Virus record (IMG/VR): IMGVR_UViG_3300020122_000089
Coordinates: 40,059 to 104,058 of that record
Origin: a virus
Reading direction: 5' to 3' (one strand)
Length of the DNA: 64,000 nucleotides
Within the stretch, counting starts at the first letter, position 1, and each line of letters opens with the position of its first letter. The position numbers were made by a program, and so were the translations under genes. Shown piece by piece: positions 2,744 through 29,594 of the stretch. The notes beneath the pieces are model-generated. The model worked only from the letters and a program-made list of their open reading frames with translations. It ran no database searches and was not told the DNA's origin.

Positions 2744-3646
2744 ATGACCAGAATACATACATTAAACGAGTCGCGTTTTGCACGGGTGGATTCTGAGGAT
2801 GCGGCCTATTGGTTAGGCTTTATTGCCGCTGATGGATGCGTGACCGACCAGGGTGATTTCGCCATACAGCTTGCCAGGCAGGATGAATGCCACCTCCATG
2901 ATTTACGAGATTGGTTTGGCAGTACACACGCCATCAGTCGTAAAGAACTACCATACCCTTCTTCATCTTTTACATTTCGATCACGTATAATCGCTGATAA
3001 TCTTGCCAGGTATGGGGTCACCCCTAGAAAATCCATAACCTTAAATTGGCCGTCAGAATTAAACCCCACCTTATATCGTCATTATATCCGTGGATATGTC
3101 GATGGCGGCGGAGGGTTATATTCCGGTAAGGCTCGATCAAACCAATCAACCTTCCATTTTAGCGTCATCGCCACTAAAACATTTGCAGATAAGCTACAGT
3201 CGGTGCTGATGTCAGAGTGTCGATTAAAGAAAACTAAGCTAGGTAAAAGTAAGGCTGGAATGGTTATTGTTGAATACGGAGGATTCTTGCAAGTTAAGAG
3301 AATTTTTCATTATCTTTACGATGGCGCTACTGTTTATTTATTGCGTAAACGATTTCCGATTCAATTAGCATTAAGCATGCACGTAAGACCTTCTAGCCAA
3401 CCAACCGACGAGCAGTATCAAAGGTGCGCAACATTGCCGCATGATGAAATTTGCCAACTATATATCGATGGTGATAGCACTGTTGACCTTTCTCGTAAAT
3501 ATAATGTTTCCATTGGCGCTATAACAAGTATAGTAAGGAAACATGGGCTATTAAGATCAACCAAGGAGGGTACGAGACTATACTGGGTAAGAAAGGGTAG
3601 CGAAATTCTTCCGGAGGAAATCAAATCCGAACTGGATGTTCTATGA
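2744..3646 (+). CDS. free-standing double-motif LAGLIDADG homing endonuclease with C-terminal HTH
   Basis: Motifs YWLGFIAADG and YIRGYVDGGG. Inserted antisense between tail genes with its own promoter (TTGACC 2707, 17 bp, TATATT 2730). Confidence 0.85.
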   Translation: MTRIHTLNESRFARVDSEDAAYWLGFIAADGCVTDQGDFAIQLARQDECHLHDLRDWFGSTHAISRKELPYPSSSFTFRSRIIADNLARYGVTPRKSITLNWPSELNPTLYRHYIRGYVDGGGGLYSGKARSNQSTFHFSVIATKTFADKLQSVLMSECRLKKTKLGKSKAGMVIVEYGGFLQVKRIFHYLYDGATVYLLRKRFPIQLALSMHVRPSSQPTDEQYQRCATLPHDEICQLYIDGDSTVDLSRKYNVSIGAITSIVRKHGLLRSTKEGTRLYWVRKGSEILPEEIKSELDVL

Positions 3647-5333
3647 ACAAACCCTCCGCACCCACAACCTGCTTGCCGCCAGCATCGCTACCGCTCATCC
3701 CTATTGCAAAACTATGAATTTCCTGGATATCTAAATGCTTGAACTGGCCTGTTTGATTCGCACCTTGAGAAATGTTTGTTCCTTGCGCATTTGACGTTGA
3801 GAGATTAAGATCGCTATAGATATCGAGCCGGTGGGCAACGTCTGCAATCGACTCGGCGCCTATAAAGGTTTTTCCAAACGCGGCAAAATCACCTGCTTGA
3901 AATTGAGATACTAAACTCCAACCTGTACCGCCGCCTGTTTCGGGGGTGTAAAGATTACCTGCCGAGTCAGAGAACAAAGCCCTTCCGTTTACAGTATCAG
4001 TTACCGCTGTAACTATCGAGGCAGGCATGTCCATTGGGGTGTTCCATTGGGCGAGATAACGATTGTAGGAGATACCGATCGAGCCATTAACATAAAATAC
4101 ACTATCCGATGCGGGGTCGTAACATACCACCACGTTGCCAGCGGCATACCCGTTAGCAGCAAAAAATTGCATAACAGGGGCGGCGAAAGAGGTTGCTTCG
4201 TCGTTCGGGTCGCGATAAGAGCTGCCACCTAAACTGTATCTATCTCTGACAGGGCCGCGAGTGCCAAGCCAGGCGTATATCTCACCTCCAACGGTGGCGA
4301 TTTGATTTGCACTTACCACACCTGTGGTTGGCCAAATTGGGTAGACGTTTAATGGGCTAATAGTGCTCTGTGATGCTGATACAAGATTCACACTTGAAGC
4401 GGTACAAACAAGGACCCGACCTTCAACGCCACTTCCTTTTACAGCAGTAATCGTTCCACCGCCGGGAATGAATAATACAAAACTTACGGGATAGGCTTCT
4501 GGCTTGTTTGGGTACGAGGGGGATAATCCAGCACCACCATAACATCCTGCCGCTACTATGACAGAATTGATTGCAAAACAAAAACCACAGGTGGGCGGAA
4601 CGCTGAAGGTCTGAGGAGCTAAATCGCCAAGCTGCGCGTCTATCCATCCAGGGGTTGTGTCGTTTGGTACTTGAATCGTATATGGAAGAGTCGGAATAGT
4701 AGTGTCGTAAAGATGAAAGTAAGGACCGATAGAACCAAACCCGCGCTTTGTAGCGTAAATGCCTATCTTGTTTGCACCAGCAGGAAGGCCGGGAAGGGCT
4801 GTGATATTTATTCCATGATTAGTGACTGATATGACATTTGAAGGTGCGCTGACGCTCGATTCGCCACCTGTTAAGGACCTGATTCCAGTAACGGCAATTG
4901 AATAAGCACCATTGTTATGCCCGGCGACGCCACTATCGGCTATTGTTGGCGCGCCTGGTGGTAAGAGGCCAGCAGCTACGGCCGAGCTTCCTGTGTAAAT
5001 CGTTACCGATCCGCCTTGAACAGCGCCAAGCGTTACGCCGCCAACCCTTGCAAATCCAGAGCCAGCGAAGAAATAAATTCCATTGCCAAAAGCCTGTACT
5101 ATACTTCCGCCACCGCTTAACCCTCCATAAGTAGAGGCGACATTTAATAGCGGATTCACGCCACCTGAACTAGCAACGGACCCACCAAAGCCTTTCGAGG
5201 TAATTAGTAACCCTTTACCACGTACCCATAGATTTTTACCGGCCAATAGGGTATGTGGTACGCCAAAGATTGGCGCAGTAGAGGGCCAATAGCCGTTTTC
5301 AAAGAAAAATCTCGCGGGTATTCTATCGCTCAT
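3621..5333 (-). CDS. putative tail/nozzle (head-stabilisation-type) structural protein
   Basis: 570 aa, Gly-rich beta-strand pattern, position after adaptor-like genes; family assignment is inference. Confidence 0.5.
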   Translation of the reverse strand: MSDRIPARFFFENGYWPSTAPIFGVPHTLLAGKNLWVRGKGLLITSKGFGGSVASSGGVNPLLNVASTYGGLSGGGSIVQAFGNGIYFFAGSGFARVGGVTLGAVQGGSVTIYTGSSAVAAGLLPPGAPTIADSGVAGHNNGAYSIAVTGIRSLTGGESSVSAPSNVISVTNHGINITALPGLPAGANKIGIYATKRGFGSIGPYFHLYDTTIPTLPYTIQVPNDTTPGWIDAQLGDLAPQTFSVPPTCGFCFAINSVIVAAGCYGGAGLSPSYPNKPEAYPVSFVLFIPGGGTITAVKGSGVEGRVLVCTASSVNLVSASQSTISPLNVYPIWPTTGVVSANQIATVGGEIYAWLGTRGPVRDRYSLGGSSYRDPNDEATSFAAPVMQFFAANGYAAGNVVVCYDPASDSVFYVNGSIGISYNRYLAQWNTPMDMPASIVTAVTDTVNGRALFSDSAGNLYTPETGGGTGWSLVSQFQAGDFAAFGKTFIGAESIADVAHRLDIYSDLNLSTSNAQGTNISQGANQTGQFKHLDIQEIHSFAIGMSGSDAGGKQVVGAEGLFIEHPVRI

Positions 5334-5430
5334 TTTCTTCCGGAAGAATTATTTTCTTGACATCTGATCGGAATTAACATATAGTTAATAACGTAGACGA
5401 TAGGAATCGTCAAAAGGGAGGGAAAGATCG

Positions 5431-5643
5431 ATGTCGTTCAACATTAAAGAAGAAATTGAAAAATTGCCGCTGTCGAAACAGCATGAATTACGTCACATCC
5501 TAGCGACCAATAGCTGGCCTGGATGGGACCTACTAAGACTTCTCGGAGAGGAATCAACATTGATGACCGTCGGTGAAGAATGGGTAGATGACGCTATGGG
5601 GTATTTTAATATTCCGCCTCATGGTACATCGTTTACGGGATAA
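5431..5643 (+). CDS. hypothetical protein
   Basis: TTGACA/TATAGT promoter and GGGAGG Shine-Dalgarno upstream. Confidence 0.6.
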   Translation: MSFNIKEEIEKLPLSKQHELRHILATNSWPGWDLLRLLGEESTLMTVGEEWVDDAMGYFNIPPHGTSFTG

Positions 5644-6242: not shown

Positions 6243-7181
6243 ATGGATAGAAAACTTATTATCGAGGCGATGGACGGTAAATTAGCCGCAATAGCTAAGT
6301 GCGAATCCGATCTTCGTGTAAGAGCTGAATTGCGCCAACCGGAATATCGCCAAGAGGTTCAACGTGAACAAATGATGCTTGAGGCTGGCGAAATATATCG
6401 CTGGACGCAAGAAACGATTGGCATAGCAAAGGCTTCGACAGTAACATTTCCATTAGACGCCAAATTCGACAGGTCTTGGCTTTATACCCCTGCCGGATGG
6501 TGGTGGCTTGGTAGGGATGCAAATCTCATCGTGCATTCACCCGACCCTGCACATAACGGCATGCGCCAGCGTGTTTGCGCTATTTCGTATGGGCTATTTG
6601 ACGGCGGCGCTGCGGCATTTTTATCTGACCGATCCGCCATTAAAGATTCGCTCAATAGTAAGCCGCTCGTTCTACTCGGTGCATTTACCTATGACCACCT
6701 TGAGAAGCAGATCGGGCCAGTTCCTAGCTGGTACGGATTTTGGCCAGAAGGCGAAACACTAGAACAGACATTGAAGCGCGAGACTAGCACCCCTGATAAA
6801 TATCGAATATGGAGTAAAAACGGCATTCAGATTCTACCATTTTTCGCCGCCGCGAGCCTTTGGCTTCAGCAAAAGATTGTCTCTTTGCAATCTGTCAAGT
6901 ACGACGGTAAGGGCAATCCGCCACGGCGATTCAGACGTAAGGATGCGAAATGGAGCGTTCAAATTATTAGATTGCGCCGGCGTGAAAATATCTCGCAGTC
7001 TACTAATTCTCATGGCGATATTGAATGGACGTGTCATTGGGTCGTTAAAGGCCATTGGCGAAATCAATTTTATCCATCCACAAACACTCATCATCCGATA
7101 TGGATCGACCCTTACTTAAAAGGCGACGAGACAAAGCCATTAAAACTTCATCCTGATCGTGTTTACGTAGTACAAAGGTGA
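6243..7181 (+). CDS. phage hypothetical protein (C-terminal HWVVKGHWRNQ...WIDPY motif)
   Basis: Start moved to ATG 6243, downstream of promoter TTGCTT 6204, 17 bp, TATACT 6227. Confidence 0.65.
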   Translation: MDRKLIIEAMDGKLAAIAKCESDLRVRAELRQPEYRQEVQREQMMLEAGEIYRWTQETIGIAKASTVTFPLDAKFDRSWLYTPAGWWWLGRDANLIVHSPDPAHNGMRQRVCAISYGLFDGGAAAFLSDRSAIKDSLNSKPLVLLGAFTYDHLEKQIGPVPSWYGFWPEGETLEQTLKRETSTPDKYRIWSKNGIQILPFFAAASLWLQQKIVSLQSVKYDGKGNPPRRFRRKDAKWSVQIIRLRRRENISQSTNSHGDIEWTCHWVVKGHWRNQFYPSTNTHHPIWIDPYLKGDETKPLKLHPDRVYVVQR

Positions 7182-7188
7182 AACCGCC

Positions 7189-7554
7189 ATGCCAATAGAT
7201 TATGCCGCTATCGCAAAACGTCTTGATGAAAGAAAGAAGATTTACAATAAGCCGCATCCGTGGGAGGAAGGGTTTTCGATTGAATTGTATGCAATTGATT
7301 GGATGGAATACCGCATTCTAAAACTCAATAGAGAATCGGATGAATATGCTACGTGGTATGAATCCTATCGTGCCAATAATACAATGGGTAGATTCTTCCG
7401 AACGCATTGCGGCGTCTCTGCTATTGAATTACTCACAAAACTTCTTCATGGACAAATCACGCTACCGCACTCCGAACGCACGTTATGTCCTCGATGTAAT
7501 CTAATCCGTGAACAAAGAAAGATGGCAAAGAATCTAAAGTGGAGTAAATCATGA
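7189..7554 (+). CDS. hypothetical protein
   Basis: 121-aa ORF directly after the previous gene. Confidence 0.55.
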   Translation: MPIDYAAIAKRLDERKKIYNKPHPWEEGFSIELYAIDWMEYRILKLNRESDEYATWYESYRANNTMGRFFRTHCGVSAIELLTKLLHGQITLPHSERTLCPRCNLIREQRKMAKNLKWSKS

Positions 7555-8196: not shown

Positions 8197-8907
8197 TTAA
8201 GCCGCCTGACCTGCCATTTTTGCGGCAATGTTCTCCCTTACCTGAGAAGGAATCGACCCTTCGCCACTTGCAATTGCGCTTAATCCTTGTTGGAACATTT
8301 GACCCCAACCACCCATTGGGCCTACATTTTCCCCTTCCACCGGAACGGCAAGTGACATAGCGCCACAAGTGACCACCCATCTGTATTCATCTGCCGCTTG
8401 ACAGGCTGAGGCTTGTGTGAATGTTGGGGCGGTTACATTAACACTCACCGATCCGCCGCCGCTACGAGCGGCTATCAAGGCACCGTTGTGGAAGATGACC
8501 TTGCCGTCTGTCGCATAGTGGCAATCGAAGTCTAGCCCTAATGGATTAGCCGAGACATGGGTTAATTCGTATTGTATCTCGGCAGGGTCCCATTCGATGC
8601 CTGGACGGTTGCCTGGCGCCGTCCCTCCTGTTACCACAAATACGACACTCGCCATTGGGCCGGCCATTGCCAATAGGGTGCCGCCATGCGCAAGACCGGA
8701 TTGGGTGGAGTAGTAGAGGGCCGATCTGCCATTATCCTTATTTCTAAAGGTGGCCGCGCAGACTATAGCGTCCGCGGTTAGGATTAGGTCGGTAACCTGA
8801 TTGGTATTCCAACGGGGGTCCACCACCACACCCGAATATTGGCCAGGGGTGCCGGCATTTAAGAGCGTGATGCAATCCGCGAGGACCGTTGCCAGGCTTA
8901 CAGCCAT
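8197..8907 (-). CDS. putative head-tail adaptor-like structural protein
   Basis: N-terminal helical pattern (LATVLADCITLL...DPRWNTNQVTDLI) typical of phage adaptors; position. Confidence 0.45.
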   Translation of the reverse strand: MAVSLATVLADCITLLNAGTPGQYSGVVVDPRWNTNQVTDLILTADAIVCAATFRNKDNGRSALYYSTQSGLAHGGTLLAMAGPMASVVFVVTGGTAPGNRPGIEWDPAEIQYELTHVSANPLGLDFDCHYATDGKVIFHNGALIAARSGGGSVSVNVTAPTFTQASACQAADEYRWVVTCGAMSLAVPVEGENVGPMGGWGQMFQQGLSAIASGEGSIPSQVRENIAAKMAGQAA

Positions 8908-8950
8908 TTGCTACTTGACTCCGTTTGGAAATAGTAGTATAATATAGCCC

Positions 8951-9832
8951 ATGCGTAGATTTAACCGAATCAAAAAAGAGTGCCTACATGATAAAGAGCC
9001 GGACGGCGCGGTGCATATTCCACTTGGACATGGGCAATGTGCTATAGTTGACATGGAAGATTATCCGACATTGATAGCATACAACTGGATGGGTGGGCGA
9101 TATGCGTATACAGTCATCGGCGGACGTAAAAACCCCCAAAAAATTTACATGCATCAACTAATACTATCAACACCAAATGGGCGTCAGGTGGATCATAGAG
9201 ACAGGAATCGGATGAATAATAGACGTATAAATCTAAGGCCAGCCACCGCATCCGAACAGGGACATAACAAGTCGGTTAGTAGTTCTAGTACAACGGGCTA
9301 TAAAGGCGTGTCGCGCTCTGGCAATAATTTTTGTGCATATATTAAGACAAACGGGCATCGAATCATTCTTGGCACATTTATTACCGCAGAGGGTGCTGCG
9401 TATATCTATGACGATGCGGCTAGGATTCATTTTGGAGAATTTGCAGCCTGTAACCTTCCTCCCGATCCTCAGAAGGTAATTCAGGCAAAGCTCAGACAAT
9501 GCAAAAGAAGGGGCCACCCTCTCCATATCGGCGTATATCGTAGGGGCGATAAATGGGCGGCGCAGTTCAAAAAGGATGGCGCATGGATTCATTTAGGTCT
9601 ATTCGCGACAGAGCAAGAGGCGTACCAAGTAACGGTGTTGGCTACTAACGGAGATTTCACCAAAAAGAAACCAGGTGAAGCGCAAAGAAAATTCACAGCC
9701 GAACAGATACTGGATATCAGGAAAATGCGTCGCGACAAGGTGCCTTATTCTACCATCGCCACGTATTTCTCTACTTGTATTGCTACGATTCAAAGTATAG
9801 TTTCGTATAGGTCCTATAAGGATATCCCCTAA
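8951..9832 (+). CDS. free-standing HNH endonuclease with AP2 DNA-binding domains
   Basis: MHQLIL...VDHRDRNRMNNRRINLR (HNH); GYKGV...LGTF...AAYIYD (AP2). Promoter TTGACT 8915, 17 bp, TATAAT 8938. Confidence 0.9.
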   Translation: MRRFNRIKKECLHDKEPDGAVHIPLGHGQCAIVDMEDYPTLIAYNWMGGRYAYTVIGGRKNPQKIYMHQLILSTPNGRQVDHRDRNRMNNRRINLRPATASEQGHNKSVSSSSTTGYKGVSRSGNNFCAYIKTNGHRIILGTFITAEGAAYIYDDAARIHFGEFAACNLPPDPQKVIQAKLRQCKRRGHPLHIGVYRRGDKWAAQFKKDGAWIHLGLFATEQEAYQVTVLATNGDFTKKKPGEAQRKFTAEQILDIRKMRRDKVPYSTIATYFSTCIATIQSIVSYRSYKDIP

Positions 9833-9973
9833 CCAGCTAATTTCCACCCCTCACAATTTTCATTGCAATCATCAGCCAGCCACAACCTACCGCATTGGCA
9901 TTTGAATACGTGAACTGATTCGGGCGGTAGAATTCTCTTGCAAATGCACATCGTTGTATGTTATAATGCGGCA

Positions 9974-10510
9974 ATGCTTTGGTGTTTATCTAACCGTTGT
10001 GATATACTTGCCTTACCGTTAGCTGATCGCCATTACAATCGCCAAAAGATAGGATCGCCACAATTCGTTCCGCCGGGCAGATGTATTGTCCTGCTAACCC
10101 CTCAAGCGGACGCTCTCTGGGTATCATCTTGGCCGTTAAAGGAATTCACAAAACATGCATGGTCTGGCGCATGGATCAATACATTATTCCGTAATGAATC
10201 TGATATTTTATCAAGCATACTAATTCAAGGGGCGGTAGCCATCACCCGTGGTATTTGGGGCGACCCACCCCGATTAGGTATGGTGACGTTCATTGATAAA
10301 ACCAAGGTAAAGAAGAAACGCGATTGGGGTAGATGCTACCGTCGAGCTGGATTTATTCCAGCGCAATGCCCGATTCATTATCCAGGGGTGACACGCGACT
10401 GCGCCTCTTGTCGTCATGAAACGTCTATCAACCATCTTTTTGCAGTACAGATGTTGCCGACGGCGATGCCCGAACCTAAGTATTTCCCGTCGTTATTTGA
10501 CTATCTTTAA
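9974..10510 (+). CDS. phage protein, possibly Mom-like/GNAT-fold DNA modification enzyme
   Basis: ADRHY...PPG and GRCYRRAGF motifs reminiscent of Mom-like proteins (inference). Leaderless start 6 nt after TATAAT 9962. Confidence 0.4.
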   Translation: MLWCLSNRCDILALPLADRHYNRQKIGSPQFVPPGRCIVLLTPQADALWVSSWPLKEFTKHAWSGAWINTLFRNESDILSSILIQGAVAITRGIWGDPPRLGMVTFIDKTKVKKKRDWGRCYRRAGFIPAQCPIHYPGVTRDCASCRHETSINHLFAVQMLPTAMPEPKYFPSLFDYL

Positions 10511-16423: not shown

Positions 16424-17152
16424 CTAGGGGCTCGATTTTCCACACTCTTTCGCTATGCGTTTGACGAATAAGATATCAGCCTTTCGCGTTTCTTCTGCAT
16501 CGGCGGCACGGCGAGCTTCTTGCGCTTCTTTTTCTTTATCTTCGGCTATCGCCTTTAATCGTTCTAGGTGCGTCTTACCGGCGTATTTATCTGGGGGTGG
16601 ATACGTCCATGTCGTGCCGCTGCCACTAAACGTGATTACGCCCGTTAGGCCGCCTAGGTCGACGTAGTCCGGTATCTGCCTCGCCGCCTTTTGAATGGCT
16701 AAAAGGAGATTTTCCCGTGTGCACTCGATATCATTGCCAGTCTTGGCGGTGGTGGCCTTAGTTGCCGCCTCGCAGCAATCGTTGAATTCTTTAGTACCGG
16801 GCACACCACCGCACCCACATAGCCATTGAGTCTGAGTGGGCGGAAGCGTGAACGCAACCACCCTTCCGGTCATGCGTGATGGCTCTTGGATGTGTAGCAC
16901 ATGTAGCGCTTCATCTCGCCGACGCACCATATTAGCCCACGTATTCTCGCGATTGAATTTCCTCCACTCTAAAACATCACCAATCTCAGGATGGGTGATG
17001 CCTTCACATTCAAGCGCCTTAGCCTCCCAAAGCATCGCTGCACGTTCCCATTTGCTTGTAGCGTCTTGCCATGCGGATACGGATTGCGCATTGGCGGCGG
17101 TATGGATTAACGATATCGCAACCGTTAAGAATAAGAGGATTCGTAATTTCAT
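16424..17152 (-). CDS. secreted hypothetical protein
   Basis: Signal peptide MKLRILLFLTVAISLIHTAANA-Q. Leaderless promoter TTGACA 17188, 17 bp, TAATAT. Confidence 0.65.
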   Translation of the reverse strand: MKLRILLFLTVAISLIHTAANAQSVSAWQDATSKWERAAMLWEAKALECEGITHPEIGDVLEWRKFNRENTWANMVRRRDEALHVLHIQEPSRMTGRVVAFTLPPTQTQWLCGCGGVPGTKEFNDCCEAATKATTAKTGNDIECTRENLLLAIQKAARQIPDYVDLGGLTGVITFSGSGTTWTYPPPDKYAGKTHLERLKAIAEDKEKEAQEARRAADAEETRKADILFVKRIAKECGKSSP

Positions 17153-22614: not shown

Positions 22615-23475
22615 TTATTCTTCCGGAAGAAACATATCCAACAACGAGTGTTTGGGTTTTATCAGCGACACTGGATGAATAGCGATAGGTGGTATATCCA
22701 TCTGCTCAATATCACAATCTGAATGGTTGCCATTACCGGAGGATAAATCAAGCACTTCTTGATTCATTCTATTGGCGGCGATTTCACAATAGCGCTCTTC
22801 GATTTCGATGCCAATGGCATGGAATCCCAAATTCTTAGCAGCTCGAAGAGTAGTACCGGATCCAAGGAACGGATCAAGGACAATACCGTCAGGCGGCATG
22901 GAAAGTGATAGCAGATGGGTAAATAAAGATAAAGGCTTTTGAGTTGGGTGGTCTAACTTGCCGGGCTGGCCATGGCGGTAACTATCAGCCTTAAAATAAT
23001 TTGGGCACGTCCCGGGACGTAAATTATTCCAGGATTTACCGGTTTTATACGCAAACACGCAAAGCTCCACACCAGAATCAAATCCAGCATGCGGTGCTGC
23101 TGGGACTGGTACGGCCTTAACCAGGACAAATGGCCTGGTCTTCCAACCTTCCCCTTCTAGCGTTGAGACAATGTCACCGAATTGTCGATGTCCGCACCAA
23201 GCGTAAATTGTATTGCTACATAAACGTGAGGCTAGTAAGATCGACCCAACTGCGCGGGCGGTACTGGCGCCCCAGTCGCTATCGTCGTTGAAAAAATCAA
23301 GTGAACGTTTCCCTTTACCCGGTTGGCGCACATGGGTGGCGCTGTTACCTAGACTAATCGAGTAAGGCGGGTCGGTTAATACTAGATCGACGGGTTCTAG
23401 CCGTGGGAGGATTTCCCTACAATCGCCGTGGTAGATTGTAATTCCACCATGTTCATAGTAGGGCGTCAACGGCAT
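22615..23475 (-). CDS. N6-adenine/N4-cytosine DNA methyltransferase (beta class)
   Basis: TDPPY, HPTQKP, DPFLGSGTT. Leaderless ATG 23475 after TTGCAA, 17 bp, TATACT. Confidence 0.9.
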   Translation of the reverse strand: MPLTPYYEHGGITIYHGDCREILPRLEPVDLVLTDPPYSISLGNSATHVRQPGKGKRSLDFFNDDSDWGASTARAVGSILLASRLCSNTIYAWCGHRQFGDIVSTLEGEGWKTRPFVLVKAVPVPAAPHAGFDSGVELCVFAYKTGKSWNNLRPGTCPNYFKADSYRHGQPGKLDHPTQKPLSLFTHLLSLSMPPDGIVLDPFLGSGTTLRAAKNLGFHAIGIEIEERYCEIAANRMNQEVLDLSSGNGNHSDCDIEQMDIPPIAIHPVSLIKPKHSLLDMFLPEE

Positions 23476-23888: not shown

Positions 23889-26800
23889 TTACGCGAATGC
23901 TACGGCCGGTCCTGGCAGGTTTGTAATGTCGGAATTACTAATGAGCCAGTGGCAGCCGAAGCGGGTAGCCCCGCCTTGTGTTAGCTTATGGTTCGATTTT
24001 CCATAAGAGCAGACTATCGCATCGCCTATTTTAGGCGCCTCTTCGTTTAGTCGTTCACGCTGATTATCTTGCGCCCTGTTTGGGTTCTCACCATTCAAGT
24101 CTATTAGAAGAGGTTTTCGCATATCATTATCTCTAACAATATGGCCCCATCGGTGGAGGTCGTACTTACAGCCAAGGAACCCTATCCACTGATCGTAATA
24201 AGTCCCCCCGCTGGTGTACTGCCTGACCTGAAGCGTATCACGCGCATACGCCCCGAACTTCATTCATCTGTAATCTCCGGTTTTCACCGGAGTGTCGGAC
24301 TATATTATCGGCTGTAAACATTACAGTCGCCGGGCGCTCTAGCTGGTAAATTAAAGGGACTAAACCCTTCCAGTAGTCTCTACACCTTCCGAGGGTGTAC
24401 CCTCGACTTGGCTCGGTATTACCATACTATTTATTTCGTTTAGGCTTCACCGAATTCACCCGGTTAATTTCCCCTAGCATCACTGCTAGGTGAGCCAATT
24501 GTTAGTTTAGCTCGTACACATTGATTTCCGCCGGATTCACACCGTACGTCCTGTCCGGGTCAATCGCGACATGGGTTTCCCAGGTAATGCCTTCTCCAAA
24601 TTTCACGTCAGTGAACGTTTTGTTACTTCCCTTTCGGGAGGGTATATCATTTCTGTATACCTCTGTATGTTTCCATACAGCCCAGACTATCTCATATTCT
24701 CACTTGACAATGGCGCCTGTTTCATGTTATAATGTTTGGCATTATGCCACAAAAATTCGGACGCTTAACTGTTCTGGGTAGGTCTTACAACAATCCATCT
24801 AAATTTCAATTCGCCAGATGGACCTGTTTATGCGATTGCGGAAACATCGTAGAGCCACTTGCAATTCATGTGCGATCTGGAAACACCCAATCCTGCGGAT
24901 GCTTGCAGCGCGAAGCTGCGAGCAGACAGGGTAAGGCGAATGCTACGCATGGACTGTCGGGTACGCCTGAGGCCTACATCTACTATGCAATGCTTCAAAG
25001 GTGTTTTAACCCGGAGCATCCTAGCTATCAAAACTATGGCGGCCGTGGTATTACGGTATGTGAAAGATGGATTGGTGCTGAAGGATTGGCCAACTTTCTC
25101 GCCGATCTCGGGCCGCGCCCTAGTTCTGATTTGACACTCGAACGCAAGAATAACGATGGAAACTACGATCCCGATAATTGTAAATGGGATACACGCGATA
25201 ATCAGAATCGCAATTATCGTCGCAACCGATTTCTTACCTTTAATGAAAAGACGCAGTGTATCGCCGATTGGGCCAGCGAAACAGGTCTCTCTCATGATAC
25301 AATTAGCTATCGGTTGGCTCATGGATGGTCCGTCGAAAAGACTCTAACTACACCTACCAAAAACAGTCTCAAGTAAGAACCGGGGCGTTATTAGGCTCTT
25401 ATTGGATTGACTCCTCAAGCCTTAGTCGTTGCACCTGCCCGCCTACTTTTACGTCATTCGGCGAGATTGGCTCAGGATTTCCATGTCTCAAATTAACGAG
25501 ATTTAGGATTCCCTGAATTAACCCCGTTTGCTTACAGATGTTACCACCTGTAGGGACTTCTTTACAGAAATCCATTCTTAGCGATCCACCGCCCCCGTCA
25601 AAACGTTGCAAATTATATCCGTTCGTTGCTGTTATCCGGCCTACGCCGAAACTGGTCATTTCTGCCAGTTTCTTGCGGTTATTTTTCCCGCAAGACCAGA
25701 ACATTGCATCATCCTTATAGGATGTCGCCTCATTTGTTCGTTCACGCTGATTTCTTCCGGAAGAAACCTTGCGCCTCGTTGGCATTTCAGCCTCCGGGTC
25801 GATTACAGGCGATTTGCATCCCCGTATCACTACAGGACGGTCCAGGATTCCAGACATGTAGGCAGCTTTTTGGGTCGGGGAGGAAAGGATCAAAGTGTTA
25901 CCTGGGTTGTCGGTCCGATACCTGAGGCTAAAGTGCACCTCTACGAGCAATGCTACCTGCAATCTCTGTTGAGATGCATTTAGAACAATGCTCTTTAGGT
26001 ATGGACGGTTGGATCTGAGTTGACCTTGGATTTCCCCCTTATGTGTTAGCTTACGATTTTTCTTTTCGTAAGAACAGACTATCGCATCATCCTGACGTGC
26101 ATACAGGACGCCTTCTCGTTTAGTCGTTCACGGTAGATTCTTCCGGAAGAATTATCCTTCCGCCCTATCAGCATTGCAGCTTTTAAGTCGATCAGAGAAG
26201 GTTTTCTATTCATCGTCACCGATGAATGCACCCGAGATTGAGTGTCATTGTTTACAAGATCGGTCACAATCTGTTACCTCTTCCTTGTGGAAGCGGGCGA
26301 GTCGTTTCCGCTCACCTCTGCATGTTACCATGCAGTTCAGACTATATCTTTCTGAGTTTTCTTGATAAGCATTCTTAGCGCCTCCGTATCCGGAAAACCC
26401 TTCTTGATTAGGTAATGAATCGCCGCCGCTTTTACGTTCAATGTTTCAGCCCAAGCGGTGATACATTGCGTAACGTCATCGAGTGTTATCATGTGATTAC
26501 GCCGCGTATTACGCATCTGCTCTTTCTTGGTTGCCCACTTCACATTCCCTGGTTCGTAATTGCCGTTGTTGTCAATGCGCTCAAGAGAATGTTCTGGTGA
26601 TGGCCTTTCACCTACATCGGCGATCCAGTTTTCAAAGCCGTGCTCGCCAATCCACCTATCGGCAACCTTTATGCCACGTCCACCGTAATTTGGATAAGAA
26701 ATCCCCGATTTTCTACGGCAGCGTGTAAGCATGGCGCAGTACAATTCATACTCCACCGTATGCGAACGTCCATGCGTTCGGTTACCTGCCGCGGCGGCTT

Positions 26801-29594
26801 CCCGCTGTTTCTGTCCTTTATTGCGCTCTATTAATTCCTCTGTGCGTAAACAGCCGCAAGATTTAGTGACGCGATCATAGAGGCGCCTGGGCCGTGCAAG
26901 GATTTCGTTACCGCAATCACACTTACAAACATATCGAGTACGTACGTACCGTCCGATGGCAACCTGAACCCTCCGTATGACTGTCAGGCGGCCTACCCTG
27001 GGCGGAATTGGAAGCGCTGGATACATGCTTACTCAAACCTCAGACCGGGCATTGGCACGGGGTTATTAGTTTAGCCTCTTCACCCGTTAGTCGTTGAACG
27101 TTCCTGCCTACTGCTAAGCTATTCGGCAGGCTTCGCTGCTGATTGTCCTTTGAAAGGAGTTCCCAGCAATTAACCCGGTTTATCCTGGGCTGTTGATTCA
27201 ACCCATGTGGAGCCTTTAGCGCCGACCCCTCATAAGTGAGGTAATCATTCGCCGTAGTCCCCGTTGGCACTGTGTCGCACGTGATGACGCTCGTTGAGCG
27301 GTTGTTACCACCTGGGTCAACAACCACTCCGGTTGTAGGAGCGCCACGCGCTACGTTTGTAGTACCGTTTACGAAGTGAATACGTGCTCCGTCTTTTACT
27401 TTGAAGGAGCCGAACGTGCCGCCGTCTGCTACGGTTACGGCGCAGGTTACTGTACCGTTAGCACCTGTAGTAGCACTCTTGACTACCGCTATTGCACCGT
27501 TCTTAGAACCTGCAATTTGGAAGTCCAAAGTCTTCTTGGAGGCTTCGGTTTGGAGGAGGTAGAGGTCGCTGATTTTGTCAATCAGTGCATCGCCTCCGAT
27601 GTTGTCGAACACGTCCCCCGAAATAAGGAACGCGGTTGCGTATCTTGCTGGAAAAATCCGCATGTCATTACGGTCCTCCAACGGTTCAATTTCCGTTGGC
27701 CCGGGCCATCGCATCGTCTTGAACAGACGCCTCTCCGTTTGGTCTCTCACGCTACTAGATTCTTCCGGAAGAATTAGTTTGCGCCCCGTTCCCGTTTCAG
27801 GGTCCGAGTCTATTAGGGGTGGTTTACATAATCCACGTCGCCGTAGATTGAGTCCAATGTTTGAACTGCGGATTATCGGCAACTGGCATTGCTCCGCCTT
27901 CAGTGAAGTCGGTCTTGTTACTAGCTCTTTTTGTAAAGAGCCGGACGGGTCATTTCTGCCCATCTCTGCATTTTTCAATGCAGCCCGGACTATATCATAA
28001 ACTTTACCTTGATTTTCCTCAAGAAATGTGCTATAATGACGCACATGTATAAAGCGAAAAGCCTTGTCGGCCAAAGATTCGGACGTCTCATCGTTGTTGC
28101 GTTCTCGCATAGAAACGACAAGAAGAGGTCGAACCATTGGCTCTGTCAATGTGATTGTGGTGGGACGGCTACGCCATCCTCTTACGCCTTGAATTCTGGT
28201 CATACCCAATCCTGCGGATGTTATCACGCAGATTGCGCACGTGCTCAAGGTCATAAAAGTCGCAAACATGGAATGTCTAGGACGGCTGAATACTACGCTT
28301 GGAATTCCATGAAGGGTCGCGTTCTTTTTTCTCATCATCCTGGATATCCGGATTATGGCGGTCGAGGTATCACTATCTGCGACCGCTGGCTTGATCCGGA
28401 GCATGGGTTTGAGAATTTTTTGGAGGATATGGGGCCACGGCCTCATGATCAACTCTCTGTAGAACGCATGAATAACCACGGTAATTACGAGCCAGGAAAT
28501 TGCAAGTGGGGAACGGATACTGAACAGGCTCGAAATAAGCGCAGTAATCATCCTCTGACTTTTAACAACAAAACCCAGCCTATGTCCGCCTGGGCGGAGG
28601 AAACTGGATTGCCATATCACATTATCAGCCATCGTATTCGTGCTGGCTGGAGTGTCGAACGGGCGCTGACTGAACCTATCAATCAATCGTATTCCCGTCG
28701 AAAAAGGTAAAGCCCTGGGGCGCTGTTTGGCGTTACTAAGATTAGCTCTTTCGGCCATAGTCTCTGGACCTTCCTACCTACTTTTATGCTATTCGGTAGG
28801 CTTGGCTGCTGATTACCATATCTCGCGGTTGAGATTTAGGCTTCCAGCAATTCACCCCATTCATGTTAGATGTCACCATCTAACAGCCCATTGTGCATAG
28901 GAGTCGGATGCCGGCGGGCGGTCGTAGAAAGGAATTCTGTAACCCCGTTGATTGACCTGTATGGCCTTCCCTTTATGGAAGCGGTTGTACAATTTTTGTT
29001 GCGTTCCTTAGAACGGATGGATATTTTCATTCCACCTCTTACGGTTCAGATTTCCGCAAGATCGGACTGTTGCATAACCTAACAAATCAGGCCCCTCTTC
29101 GCTCAGTCTCTCACGGTAAAGATTTTTCTCTTTTTCCGCCTCGTTACCATGTTGCAGGTTTCGAGTCAATAAGAAGAGGTTTTCATCTATCGTTTTCACG
29201 GTAAATGCCCCGTATTTTGATGCCCAGGGTTTGGCTCTCTTCGAACTGTTTTTCAATCTCGGGATTGACAGCAGTCCTCACTACGGCTTCAAATTGGCTA
29301 AAAACAAGCTCCCGGTTTCTGGCGATTTTTCTTTTTCGCCAGCCCAGACTGTCGCATCACCCTTTTGGGCGCCTTCTCGCTCAGTCGTTTACGCCGCTCG
29401 GATTCATACCGCTCGTATAACGTTGGTCTCGTTAATTCGGATTCAACAATCCGTCCTAACTGTTTCCAAAGTTTATCTGCCAATACTTCATCCTGCTTGC
29501 GCATTGTTCCCGTTTCAGGATTCAACTCAATCAGAGAAGGTTGTTTTCCAAAGGAGGCTGTATCGCTACAGGGCTGGCCGAGCTTTTCAGCCAT
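23889..29594 (-). CDS. major capsid protein, 421 aa, in 11 exons: 29594-29589, 29311-29225, 28989-28899, 27909-27864, 27670-27201, 26266-26241, 26037-25852, 25623-25570, 24615-24509, 24264-24157, 23973-23889
   Basis: Exons sum to 1266 nt and give one open frame: MAELVFSQFEAVVRTAVNPEIEKQFEESQTLYNRF...SYFTEGGAMP...APHGLTDLVNNDTGEIQGQLRS...KYDLGATRFGCH...AVAFA*. Shine-Dalgarno AAGGGGG before the ATG; position downstream of scaffold; motifs typical of HK97-fold capsids. Confidence 0.85.
23974..24156 (-). mobile_element. group I intron 10 (183 nt, no endonuclease ORF)
   Basis: P3 CCUCUUC/GAAGAGG; P7 GACUA/UAGUC; P9.0 CU/AG then G; short P1; junction gives Y-D-L-G-A-T. Confidence 0.8.
24265..24508 (-). 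mobile_element. group I intron 9 (244 nt, IA-like, ORF-less)
   Basis: P1 GAGCU/GGCUC; P4 UUCGGU/ACCGAG; P7 AGAGACUA/UAUAGUCC; ends GAUG. Confidence 0.9.
24616..25569 (-). mobile_element. group I intron 8 (954 nt, IA-like) with antisense HNH gene in P8
   Basis: P1 GGAUUUCU-GUAA-AGAAGUCC; P7 AACGACUA/AUAGUCU; ends AAACG; junction gives M-D-F-T-D-V. Confidence 0.9.
24744..25376 (+). CDS. intron-encoded HNH endonuclease (antisense to intron 8)
   Basis: GRLTV..CLCDCG..SCGC..YGGRGI..LERKNNDGNYDPDNCKW. Promoter TTGACA 24704, 18 bp, TATAAT 24728. Confidence 0.9.
   Translation: MPQKFGRLTVLGRSYNNPSKFQFARWTCLCDCGNIVEPLAIHVRSGNTQSCGCLQREAASRQGKANATHGLSGTPEAYIYYAMLQRCFNPEHPSYQNYGGRGITVCERWIGAEGLANFLADLGPRPSSDLTLERKNNDGNYDPDNCKWDTRDNQNRNYRRNRFLTFNEKTQCIADWASETGLSHDTISYRLAHGWSVEKTLTTPTKNSLK
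25624..25851 (-). mobile_element. group I intron 7 (228 nt, no endonuclease ORF)
   Basis: P1 GUCU/GGAC; P3 UCGCCU/AGGCGA; P7 covariant GAACA/UGUUC; ends AACG. Confidence 0.85.
26038..26240 (-). mobile_element. group I intron 6 (203 nt, ORF-less)
   Basis: P1 CACU/GGUG; P3 CCUUCUC/GAGAAGG; P7 GACUA/UAGUC; P9.0 UU/AA then G. Confidence 0.85.
26267..27200 (-). mobile_element. group I intron 5 (934 nt, IA-like) with sense HNH gene in P8
   Basis: P1 UGGGUUG/CAGCCCA; P7 AACGACUA/AUAUAGUCU; ends AUUG; junction gives H-G-L-T-D-L. Confidence 0.9.
26337..27026 (-). CDS. intron-encoded HNH endonuclease (intron 5)
   Basis: GRLTV..CKCDCG..SCGC..YGGRGI..LERIDNNGNYEPGNVKW; ORF ends at the P7 3' strand. 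Confidence 0.9.
   Translation of the reverse strand: MYPALPIPPRVGRLTVIRRVQVAIGRYVRTRYVCKCDCGNEILARPRRLYDRVTKSCGCLRTEELIERNKGQKQREAAAAGNRTHGRSHTVEYELYCAMLTRCRRKSGISYPNYGGRGIKVADRWIGEHGFENWIADVGERPSPEHSLERIDNNGNYEPGNVKWATKKEQMRNTRRNHMITLDDVTQCITAWAETLNVKAAAIHYLIKKGFPDTEALRMLIKKTQKDIV
27671..27863 (-). mobile_element. group I intron 4 (193 nt, ORF-less)
   Basis: P1 AGUUCAA/UUGGACU with U.G; P10 CAUUG/UAAUG; P7 GAGACCA/UGGCCC (one mismatch); ends ACCG. Confidence 0.8.
27910..28898 (-). mobile_element. group I intron 3 (989 nt, IA-like) with antisense HNH gene in P8
   Basis: P1 CCUAU/AUGGG; P4 UUGCUG/CAGCAG; P7 AGAGACUA/UAUAGUCC; ends ACCG; junction gives S-Y-F-T-E-G-G. Confidence 0.9.
28045..28710 (+). 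CDS. intron-encoded HNH endonuclease (antisense to intron 3)
   Basis: GRLIV..CQCDCG..SCGC..YGGRGI..ERMNNHGNYEPGNCKW. Leaderless ATG 7 nt after TATAAT 28032. Confidence 0.9.
   Translation: MYKAKSLVGQRFGRLIVVAFSHRNDKKRSNHWLCQCDCGGTATPSSYALNSGHTQSCGCYHADCARAQGHKSRKHGMSRTAEYYAWNSMKGRVLFSHHPGYPDYGGRGITICDRWLDPEHGFENFLEDMGPRPHDQLSVERMNNHGNYEPGNCKWGTDTEQARNKRSNHPLTFNNKTQPMSAWAEETGLPYHIISHRIRAGWSVERALTEPINQSYSRRKR
28990..29224 (-). mobile_element. group I intron 2 (235 nt, ORF-less), junction non-canonical by 1 nt
   Basis: P1 CCCUG/CGGGG; P3 CCUCUUC/GAAGAGG; P7 GAGACUG/CAGUCC; removal restores T-L-Y-N-R-F. Confidence 0.8.
29312..29588 (-). mobile_element. group I intron 1 (277 nt, no endonuclease ORF) after MCP codon 2
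   Basis: P1 UGGCU/GGCCA with U.G; P10 AAGCUC/GAGCUU; P3 CCUUCUC/GAGAAGG; P7 GACUG/CAGUC; terminal G. Confidence 0.85.

Follow-up and report, generated by a model that had tools for sequence, protein, structure and literature searches.

Background

Endonuclease genes of the I-TevI type in phage group I introns occupy peripheral loops and are served by promoters of their own within the intron (PMC2988022), and antisense open reading frames (ORFs) are not a topic in reviews of group I introns from bacteria (PMC3984707). Antisense homing endonuclease genes (HEGs) with an internal promoter of their own are known from group I introns of nuclear rDNA, where they encode His-Cys box enzymes such as I-DirII of Didymium iridis and I-DsqI at L2066 (PMC3073962, PMC9548176). 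Closer to the case considered here, the group I intron in the capsid gene of mycobacteriophage LittleE contains a bottom-strand endonuclease ORF, gp14, 'transcribed in the leftwards direction' (Pope et al. 2013, PMC3706429). We describe a further capsid gene of this kind, in the virus IMGVR_UViG_3300020122_000089. Two of its group I introns (introns 3 and 8) each carry an endonuclease gene that is inverted with respect to ribozyme and capsid gene alike, and a third (intron 5) carries a related gene in the sense orientation. The window, that is, the whole stretch of DNA analyzed, comprises the last 64 kb of this 104,058-bp IMG/VR viral contig, which has direct terminal repeats. An earlier, sequence-only reading of the locus had taken co-orientation with the intron to be the norm for phage endonuclease genes, a view that the published antisense gp14 qualifies.

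We propose that introns 3 and 8 harbor autonomous, inverted cassettes, each consisting of a promoter and an ORF, from which leaderless mRNAs would be expressed uncoupled from late transcription and from splicing; to the expression part of this reading we assign a probability of about three in four. At the level of sequence, the independent expression suggested by the earlier reading is well supported by putative promoters belonging to the genes themselves, by a leaderless design that recurs across the genome and in a related contig, and by the position of the two genes as lone plus-strand units.

Antisense genes in the P8 loops of capsid introns

From about 10.5 to 63 kb of the window, genes lie almost exclusively on the minus strand, and the major capsid gene (29594-23889, minus) is divided there into 11 exons by ten introns. 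The exons were mapped with the intron-less capsid homologues P0133, P0127 and P0130 (415-420 aa) and with L083, a related 104,444-bp contig that has an uninterrupted capsid allele; the splice sites were then refined using the intron-less homologues and the rule that the 5' exon ends with U and the intron with G (omega-G). The Rfam model RF00028 calls four of the ten capsid introns, all on the minus strand (28911-27966, 27248-26318, 25579-24663 and 24518-24275). After refinement, intron 3 spans 28898-27910 (minus; 91.3 bits), with the 5' exon ending at U28899 and omega-G at 27910, and intron 8 spans 25569-24616 (minus; 74.2 bits), with the 5' exon ending at U25570 and omega-G at 24616; the end points 28898 and 24616 given in the earlier reading are identical to these splice sites. 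Both introns exceed the RF00028 threshold of 50 across model positions 1-253 and thus belong to group I. Their removal restores a colinear frame (...SDSY/FTEGG... and ...RMD/FTDVKFG..., with the slash at the exon junction) that matches P0133, L083 and a further relative, L081. Intron 5 (27200-26267, minus) scores 66 bits.

The two genes of main interest, HEG-3 (28045-28710, plus; 221 aa; PHROG 374, E 5.7e-65) and HEG-8 (24744-25376, plus; 210 aa; PHROG 374, E 2.6e-61), are plus-strand ORFs within minus-strand RF00028 introns and so run opposite to introns 3 and 8, respectively, as had been noted. Also as noted, the relative in intron 5 is in the sense orientation (HEG-5, 27026-26337, minus; 229 aa; PHROG 374, E 6e-54). 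The three proteins, which are the sole copies of the family in the genome, share pairwise identities of about 42-49%. In the Rfam alignments of introns 3 and 8, P8 is the hairpin between the 3' strand of P3 and J8/7, and the ORF fills its loop; minimum free energy (MFE) folding of the introns minus the insert reproduces P3-P8. As is characteristic of mobile-intron ORFs, the genes lie in a peripheral loop, and intron and ORF are each present in some relatives and missing from others.

The boundaries of the genes are built into the stem. In intron 3, the 5' arm of P8 (28713-28705, minus; GCUUUACCU) contains the HEG-3 stop codon TAA (28708-28710) and pairs with the 3' arm (28009-28001, minus; AGGUAAAGU) both in the Rfam alignment and in duplex and MFE folding. 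In intron 8, the 5' arm (25377-25369, minus) contains the HEG-8 TAA (25374-25376), and the 3' arm lies at 24707-24699 (minus). The claim that the stop codon is located in one P8 arm thus holds for both genes, in each case for the 5' arm. The companion claim, that the -35 box overlaps the other arm, stands for intron 8, where the overlap is 4 nt, but in intron 3 amounts to a single nucleotide of the 9-bp core arm. By folding, the P8 helix of intron 3 continues past a 3-nt bulge into the HEG-3 promoter region, and in the extended P8 of intron 8 part of the HEG-8 promoter spacer pairs with the 3' end of the ORF; the -35 box of intron 3 falls within the bulged extension, and both -35 boxes are inside the extended P8 pairings. 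The sense gene is arranged differently: HEG-5 has a GAGG (27041-27038) within the 5' arm of P8, its last codons cross the P8 3' arm, J8/7 and the P7 3' strand, and it lacks a promoter of its own, the best promoter score being only 7.

Pairwise identities among the ribozyme cores are 64-82%, and intron 3 does not pair with intron 8. Six small introns of the capsid gene (about 180-260 nt) were missed by Rfam and share the core 'cgtgaacgacta...gatgcgatagtctg'. In the relatives P0123, P0124 and P0126, predicted 'capsid' proteins of 517-600 aa cross several small introns in frame and free of stops, and because they do so, some introns of the capsid clade must be open in the exon frame.

Predicted promoters and leaderless starts

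Promoter-like sites of high quality stand immediately ahead of both antisense genes. The predicted HEG-3 promoter (28009-28037, plus) combines the -35 box TTGATT (28009-14), a 17-nt spacer and an extended -10 element, TGcTATAAT, with TG at 28029-30 and TATAAT at 28032-37, matching 10 of 12 consensus positions plus the TG; the predicted HEG-8 promoter (24704-24733, plus) combines TTGACA (24704-09), an 18-nt spacer and TGtTATAAT (TG at 24725-26, TATAAT at 24728-33) and matches 12 of 12 plus the TG. These are the top two plus-strand sites across 14 kb, and sites scoring at least 10/12 with TG number 10 in the 64-kb window, both strands included. The initiator ATG follows TATAAT by 7 nt in HEG-3 (28045) and by 10 nt in HEG-8 (24744), in agreement with the 7-10 nt reported before. 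The chance that such a site ends 5-11 nt ahead of a given ATG is ~5e-4, and that it does so for both genes ~3e-7. Neither ATG is preceded by a Shine-Dalgarno sequence, which ordinary genes of the phage possess (for example, AAGGAGG before 23861). The in-frame ATGs further upstream, at 28036 and 24732, would be outside the transcript because both lie inside the -10 boxes.

The same design recurs elsewhere in the genome. The distance from promoter-like -10 boxes to the ATG has a genome-wide peak at 7 nt (11 instances, against ~3 at other offsets), and among ORFs 80 aa or longer an offset of 6-8 nt occurs in 10 cases where ~1 is expected. The free-standing phrog_4645 endonuclease gene (2744-3646, plus; promoter from 2707) reads TTGACC-N17-TGnTATATT, 8 nt, ATG, and the phrog_99 HNH endonuclease gene (8951-9832, plus; promoter from 8915) reads TTGACT-N17-TATAAT, 7 nt, ATG. 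The arrangement of a near-consensus, mostly extended -10 promoter and an ATG 6-8 nt farther on is also found at a DNA methyltransferase gene starting at 23475 (23511-22615 with the promoter, minus), at phrog_24928, an ORF of unknown function starting at 9974 (9938-10510 with the promoter, plus), and at an ORF starting at 17152 (17188-16424 with the promoter, minus); in one further ORF (start 6243, plus) the ATG is 10 nt past the -10 box. Judged by these signals, endonuclease genes that face against their neighbors in this phage are self-promoted, leaderless units. Leaderless mRNAs would, moreover, appear to be common in the phage, a hint that its host may use them widely.

HEG-3 and HEG-8 are the sole noteworthy plus-strand genes in a minus-strand block of ~50 kb and, judging from the sequence, expression is open to them only as separate transcription units. 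An operator of the I-TevI style was considered and rejected, as no similarity was seen between the homing sites and the regions around the promoters.

A predicted nuclease without the canonical histidine

The endonuclease family to which HEG-3, HEG-5 and HEG-8 belong has more than 7,900 homologues, most of them free-standing. The proteins match PHROGs 374, 3377, 2081 and 953, each of which carries the label HNH endonuclease, with E-values of 1e-20 to 1e-65, and the structural neighbors in BFVD are named HNH, AP2 or homing endonuclease. The AlphaFold2 (AF2) model of HEG-3, with a predicted local distance difference test (pLDDT) score of 91, places residues 1-60 in a small SH3/Tudor-like barrel bearing the cysteines CxCxC...SCGC. 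A strand at 138-141, a second strand at 153-156 and a helix at 158-163 in the model could correspond to the elements of a beta-beta-alpha-metal motif. Searches with two profiles against PDB sequences returned nothing meaningful, and a Foldseek search against PDB returned nothing.

PacI is a His-Me finger enzyme that has no catalytic His and uses a Tyr of the omega loop (PMC5714182). By analogy, the invariant Tyr148 of the HEG family, which is located in an omega loop, could replace the catalytic His; N152 and N164 are likewise invariant. HEG-3 and HEG-8 are full length and keep every family-invariant residue. We accordingly regard the HEG protein, on the basis of sequence and model, as a His-less, His-Me-finger-like nuclease of predicted activity. 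The earlier designation of the genes as 'HNH' agrees with the PHROG labels but is appropriate in a loose sense only, since Arg has replaced the catalytic His.

Relatives, mobility and change of orientation

The number of capsid introns varies among relatives from zero (the intron-less alleles of L083, P0127, P0130 and P0133) to many. The most informative relative is the contig L081 (identical to L082, the same contig, which was also returned by a metagenome scan); its capsid exon is 87% identical to that of the window and its capsid gene is intron-rich, although introns 3 and 8 are missing. One of its capsid introns (~6436-7391), inserted 3 nt from the site of window intron 6 and 27 nt from that of intron 5, carries an antisense copy of the endonuclease family in P8. 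The putative promoter of this copy reads TTGCGT-N17-TGgTATACT, followed after 7 nt by the ATG, and its -35 box starts at the P8 3' arm. The stop codon is found past P8, in the P7 strand, so the location of the stop in a stem arm is a feature that is not conserved.

A version of intron 3 that is devoid of the gene can be recognized as well. P0124 aligns to P0122, the read-through mirror ORF of the window, on either side of a 232-residue gap that coincides with the tip of P8; intron 3 therefore also occurs in a form without the endonuclease gene, and the cassette, at ~0.7 kb, represents a discrete insertion. Across the family at large the genes are found in other settings: none of the 40 nearest homologue loci in IMG/VR includes an Rfam intron (0/40). 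One homologue, in L027 (2971-3822, minus), is free-standing and antisense between a terminase gene and a portal(-like) gene, and has the signals TTGACA-N16-TATCTT, 7 nt, ATG.

In a quick maximum-likelihood (ML) tree, HEG-3, HEG-5 and HEG-8 are not monophyletic: HEG-3 falls nearest to P0007 and HEG-8 to P0096, and the sense gene HEG-5 is sister to the antisense copy of L081 (SH-aLRT support 96). From this sister pair it follows that orientation changed within one lineage.

The 3' exons after introns 3 and 8 open with a shared motif, ACTTCACTGA (27909-27898) and TTCACTGA (24615-24606), and the intron-less site-8 allele of L081 (7866-7885) reads GGACTTCACTGACG. The shared motif may be a common recognition sequence, still a candidate from its sequence, for the paralogous endonucleases of introns 3 and 8. 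Three further observations concern the relatives. L081 contains an intron-associated ORF (4819-5637, plus) of 272 aa with repeated helix-turn-helix-like segments, and a 187-aa ORF (8745-9308, minus), antisense to the capsid direction, that is canonical-HNH-like; in another relative, P0131, an AP2 domain (PF00847) is fused to capsid exon sequence. Outside this circle, megablast and tblastn searches of a phage collection yielded no relative, and a scan of genome contigs no match; the intron core resembles unrelated phages only in features general to group I introns, which gives no clue to the host.

Mirror frames and codon avoidance

Opposite the antisense genes, the codon-aligned (mirror) frame is open for 221 codons in HEG-3 (28045-28707), 171 in HEG-8 (24744-25373) and 175 in the L081 copy (6567-7253), and the other two opposite-strand frames contain 11-17 stops. 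On the minus strand, which is the sense strand of the intron, the HEG-3 mirror is part of an open frame of 572 codons (27040-28758) that continues through exon 4, intron 4 and exon 5; the mirror frame of intron 8, codon-aligned with HEG-8, lies at 25322-24828 (minus). An open mirror frame implies a shortage of the codons TTA, CTA and TCA in the gene, and their counts were compared with expectations computed from the codon usage of the phage itself. HEG-3 has 0 such codons against 8.2 expected (P 3e-4), HEG-8 has 3 against 9.9 (P 0.011) and the antisense copy of L081 has 2 against 7.4 (P 0.022). For the sense gene HEG-5, the difference between 5 observed and 7.0 expected is not significant, and the free-standing genes at 2744 (26 against 17.9) and 8951 (7 against 8.6) are not depleted. 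None of the 42 Ser codons in the three antisense genes is TCA (0/42), despite the free use of T-ending codons, with a GC content at third codon positions (GC3) of 0.45-0.53. When GC-matched members of the family are taken as the standard, the depletion is merely suggestive, as these have a mean of 5.2 such codons and 8% have none; and in free-standing homologues antisense to both neighbors a crude test detected no trend toward avoidance of mirror stops. The mirror frame of the L027 homologue is fully open and ends 2 nt ahead of the terminase ATG, as if bridging translation between two late genes.

One tentative interpretation, to which we give somewhat less than even odds, is that selection against TTA, CTA and TCA lets ribosomes that translate the capsid pre-mRNA pass the P8 insert, which could serve to escape Rho-dependent termination or RNA decay, or that the lineage has become adapted to living backward in translated sequence; inversion at the P8 arms would then switch orientation.

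Proposed mechanism and alternatives

The arrangement that we consider most plausible is as follows. A homing endonuclease cassette of ~0.7 kb, made up of promoter and ORF, would sit at the tip of the P8 hairpin, inverted with respect to the ribozyme and the capsid gene. The cassette exactly fills the P8 loop, which leaves the stem of 9-12 bp able to close and the ribozyme core able to fold. The host RNA polymerase would initiate at the AUG or a few nucleotides from it, giving a leaderless mRNA, and the endonuclease would be made independently of late transcription of the capsid gene, of splicing and of ribosomes on the pre-mRNA. In the antisense orientation the ribozyme would be spared translation, unlike the situation of HEG-5, which runs through P8 and P7. 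Head-on late transcription of the capsid gene should subsequently turn the endonuclease off through promoter occlusion, polymerase collision and pairing with the abundant pre-mRNA or excised intron RNA, the timing being conjectural. The nuclease, predicted to combine an N-terminal zinc-ribbon/SH3-like domain with a His-less, PacI-like beta-beta-alpha-metal domain, would nick or cut the intron-less capsid alleles of co-infecting relatives, resulting in homing or competition. At the DNA level the two P8 arms form an inverted repeat, and this offers a simple way for orientation to change: recombination between the arms could flip the contents of the loop and leave the ribozyme unharmed, which would account for sense and antisense copies in one lineage.

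Several points weigh against this proposal. The promoters, the start sites and the leaderless mode of translation are predictions from the sequence that assume a host polymerase of sigma-70-type specificity. At HEG-8, the spacing of 10 nt between the -10 box and the ATG makes a leader of 3-4 nt likelier than a truly leaderless message; the promoters of the three antisense copies may share descent and are thus not fully independent evidence; and no intrinsic terminator was found 3' of HEG-3 or HEG-8. The copy in L081 lacks the invariant YGGRGI motif and may be decaying. The tree is a quick version in which the sister pair of HEG-5 and the L081 copy is deeply diverged. With regard to the protein, none of the three HEG products has a match in Pfam or NCBIfam; the best PDB match of residues 72-168, to PacI, is weak (Z 6.1; root-mean-square deviation 3.9 Å over 79 aligned residues); and the canonical His is absent, the catalytic-His position being occupied by an invariant Arg141 (E140-R141 in 40 family members).

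The missing terminator also bears on the alternative that survives best, the modulation suggested in the earlier reading: the main role of the HEG mRNAs would be as antisense RNAs, which would adjust splicing or the yield of capsid by base pairing with the capsid pre-mRNA. By geometry, they would be perfectly complementary to the P8 insert over ~0.65 kb, and with no terminator the transcripts could reach the ribozyme core and the upstream exon; the same concern has been voiced for the antisense endonuclease genes of nuclear rDNA (PMC9548176). The complementarity, however, is confined to a dispensable loop, and intact ORFs with all invariant residues point to selection on the protein. The cassette design is, furthermore, shared by free-standing endonuclease genes that are unable to regulate the capsid gene, and no regulatory feature was found, whether a terminator, an operator-like similarity to the homing site or any other. 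Late capsid transcripts should also be in large excess, making silencing of the endonuclease by capsid transcription the likelier direction. We therefore consider regulation by these RNAs unlikely as their main role.

Still less probable, in our estimation, is that the genes are silent or decaying relics preceded by promoter-like motifs that arose by chance. Degeneration after fixation is an expected phase in the life cycle of a homing endonuclease gene, and the loss of YGGRGI from the L081 copy would conform to it. The ORFs in the window, on the other hand, are full length with all invariant residues present, the design recurs in L081 and throughout the genome, and chance placement of the promoters, calculated from 10 sites in 128 kb, has the low probabilities given above (~5e-4 per ATG, ~3e-7 for both).

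Expression by read-through, either from a distant plus-strand promoter or in the capsid transcript, seems very improbable. Dependence on distant promoters has been proposed for segD of phage T4 (PMC2988022), but the window offers no support for it: the capsid transcript holds only the complement of the HEGs, the many kb upstream are free of plus-strand genes and of strong plus-strand promoters, a terminator-like hairpin (24629-24642, plus) precedes the HEG-8 promoter in intron 8, and no Shine-Dalgarno sequence is present for an internal start. Finally, an assembly artefact is hardly credible as the source of the inverted orientation, for although the short inverted repeats that flank the cassettes (the P8 arms) are of a kind that can mislead assemblers, two separate cassettes here and one in an independent metagenome contig (L081/L082) have the same layout, and their signals are specific to orientation, the promoter being confined to the antisense copies and GAGG to the sense copy.

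Comparison with known systems

If the cassettes function as self-promoted, leaderless units, they would represent a simple bacterial route by which a selfish endonuclease gene can inhabit an essential, very highly expressed gene: reversal, together with a private promoter at the AUG, would have ribosomes spare the ribozyme and would uncouple the endonuclease from capsid expression. Two antisense genes, one sense gene, and relatives without the intron or without the endonuclease constitute a natural comparison set for the effects of orientation on splicing, homing and timing. The codon avoidance, in turn, hints at a possible constraint between the strands.

Among phage systems, T4 segD is similar in that it encodes an endonuclease on the strand opposite to the late genes around it (PMC2988022), but it has no recognizable promoter of its own and is not located in an intron. 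The I-TevI-type genes differ in being co-oriented with their introns, in the use of T4 middle and late promoters and in a sequestered ribosome-binding site; I-TevI also represses its own promoter through an operator that resembles the homing site, a similarity that was not found here. The nuclear rDNA introns are alike in that the gene is antisense to ribozyme and host gene and has its own promoter, and in that sense and antisense versions occur in related introns; they are different in being eukaryotic, with a Pol II promoter, a spliceosomal intron, polyadenylation, another nuclease family and rRNA as the host gene. PacI (PDB 3m7k/3ldy) shares with the HEG protein the missing catalytic His and a Tyr in a loop, and is its best structural match, whereas sequence similarity is lacking and the flanking domains and biological role are other ones.

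The closest parallel remains LittleE, which likewise has an antisense endonuclease gene in a group I intron of a phage capsid gene, and which further resembles the virus described here in genome size (~100-117 kb), many free-standing endonuclease genes and a glycosyltransferase gene near the capsid gene. Searches of the phage collection revealed no similarity at the level of capsid or DNA. The gp14 of LittleE is a LAGLIDADG enzyme, whereas the genes considered here encode His-less, HNH-like proteins of PHROG 374; LittleE has one such intron, compared with two antisense genes and one sense paralogue among ten introns here; and the LittleE paper reports neither a promoter nor a leaderless start (PMC3706429). 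The antisense layout within a capsid intron is, then, already published, if rare. What is new in the present locus is the different nuclease family, the coexistence of two antisense copies and a sense paralogue in one gene, and a cassette design that is common to the free-standing endonuclease genes of the same genome.

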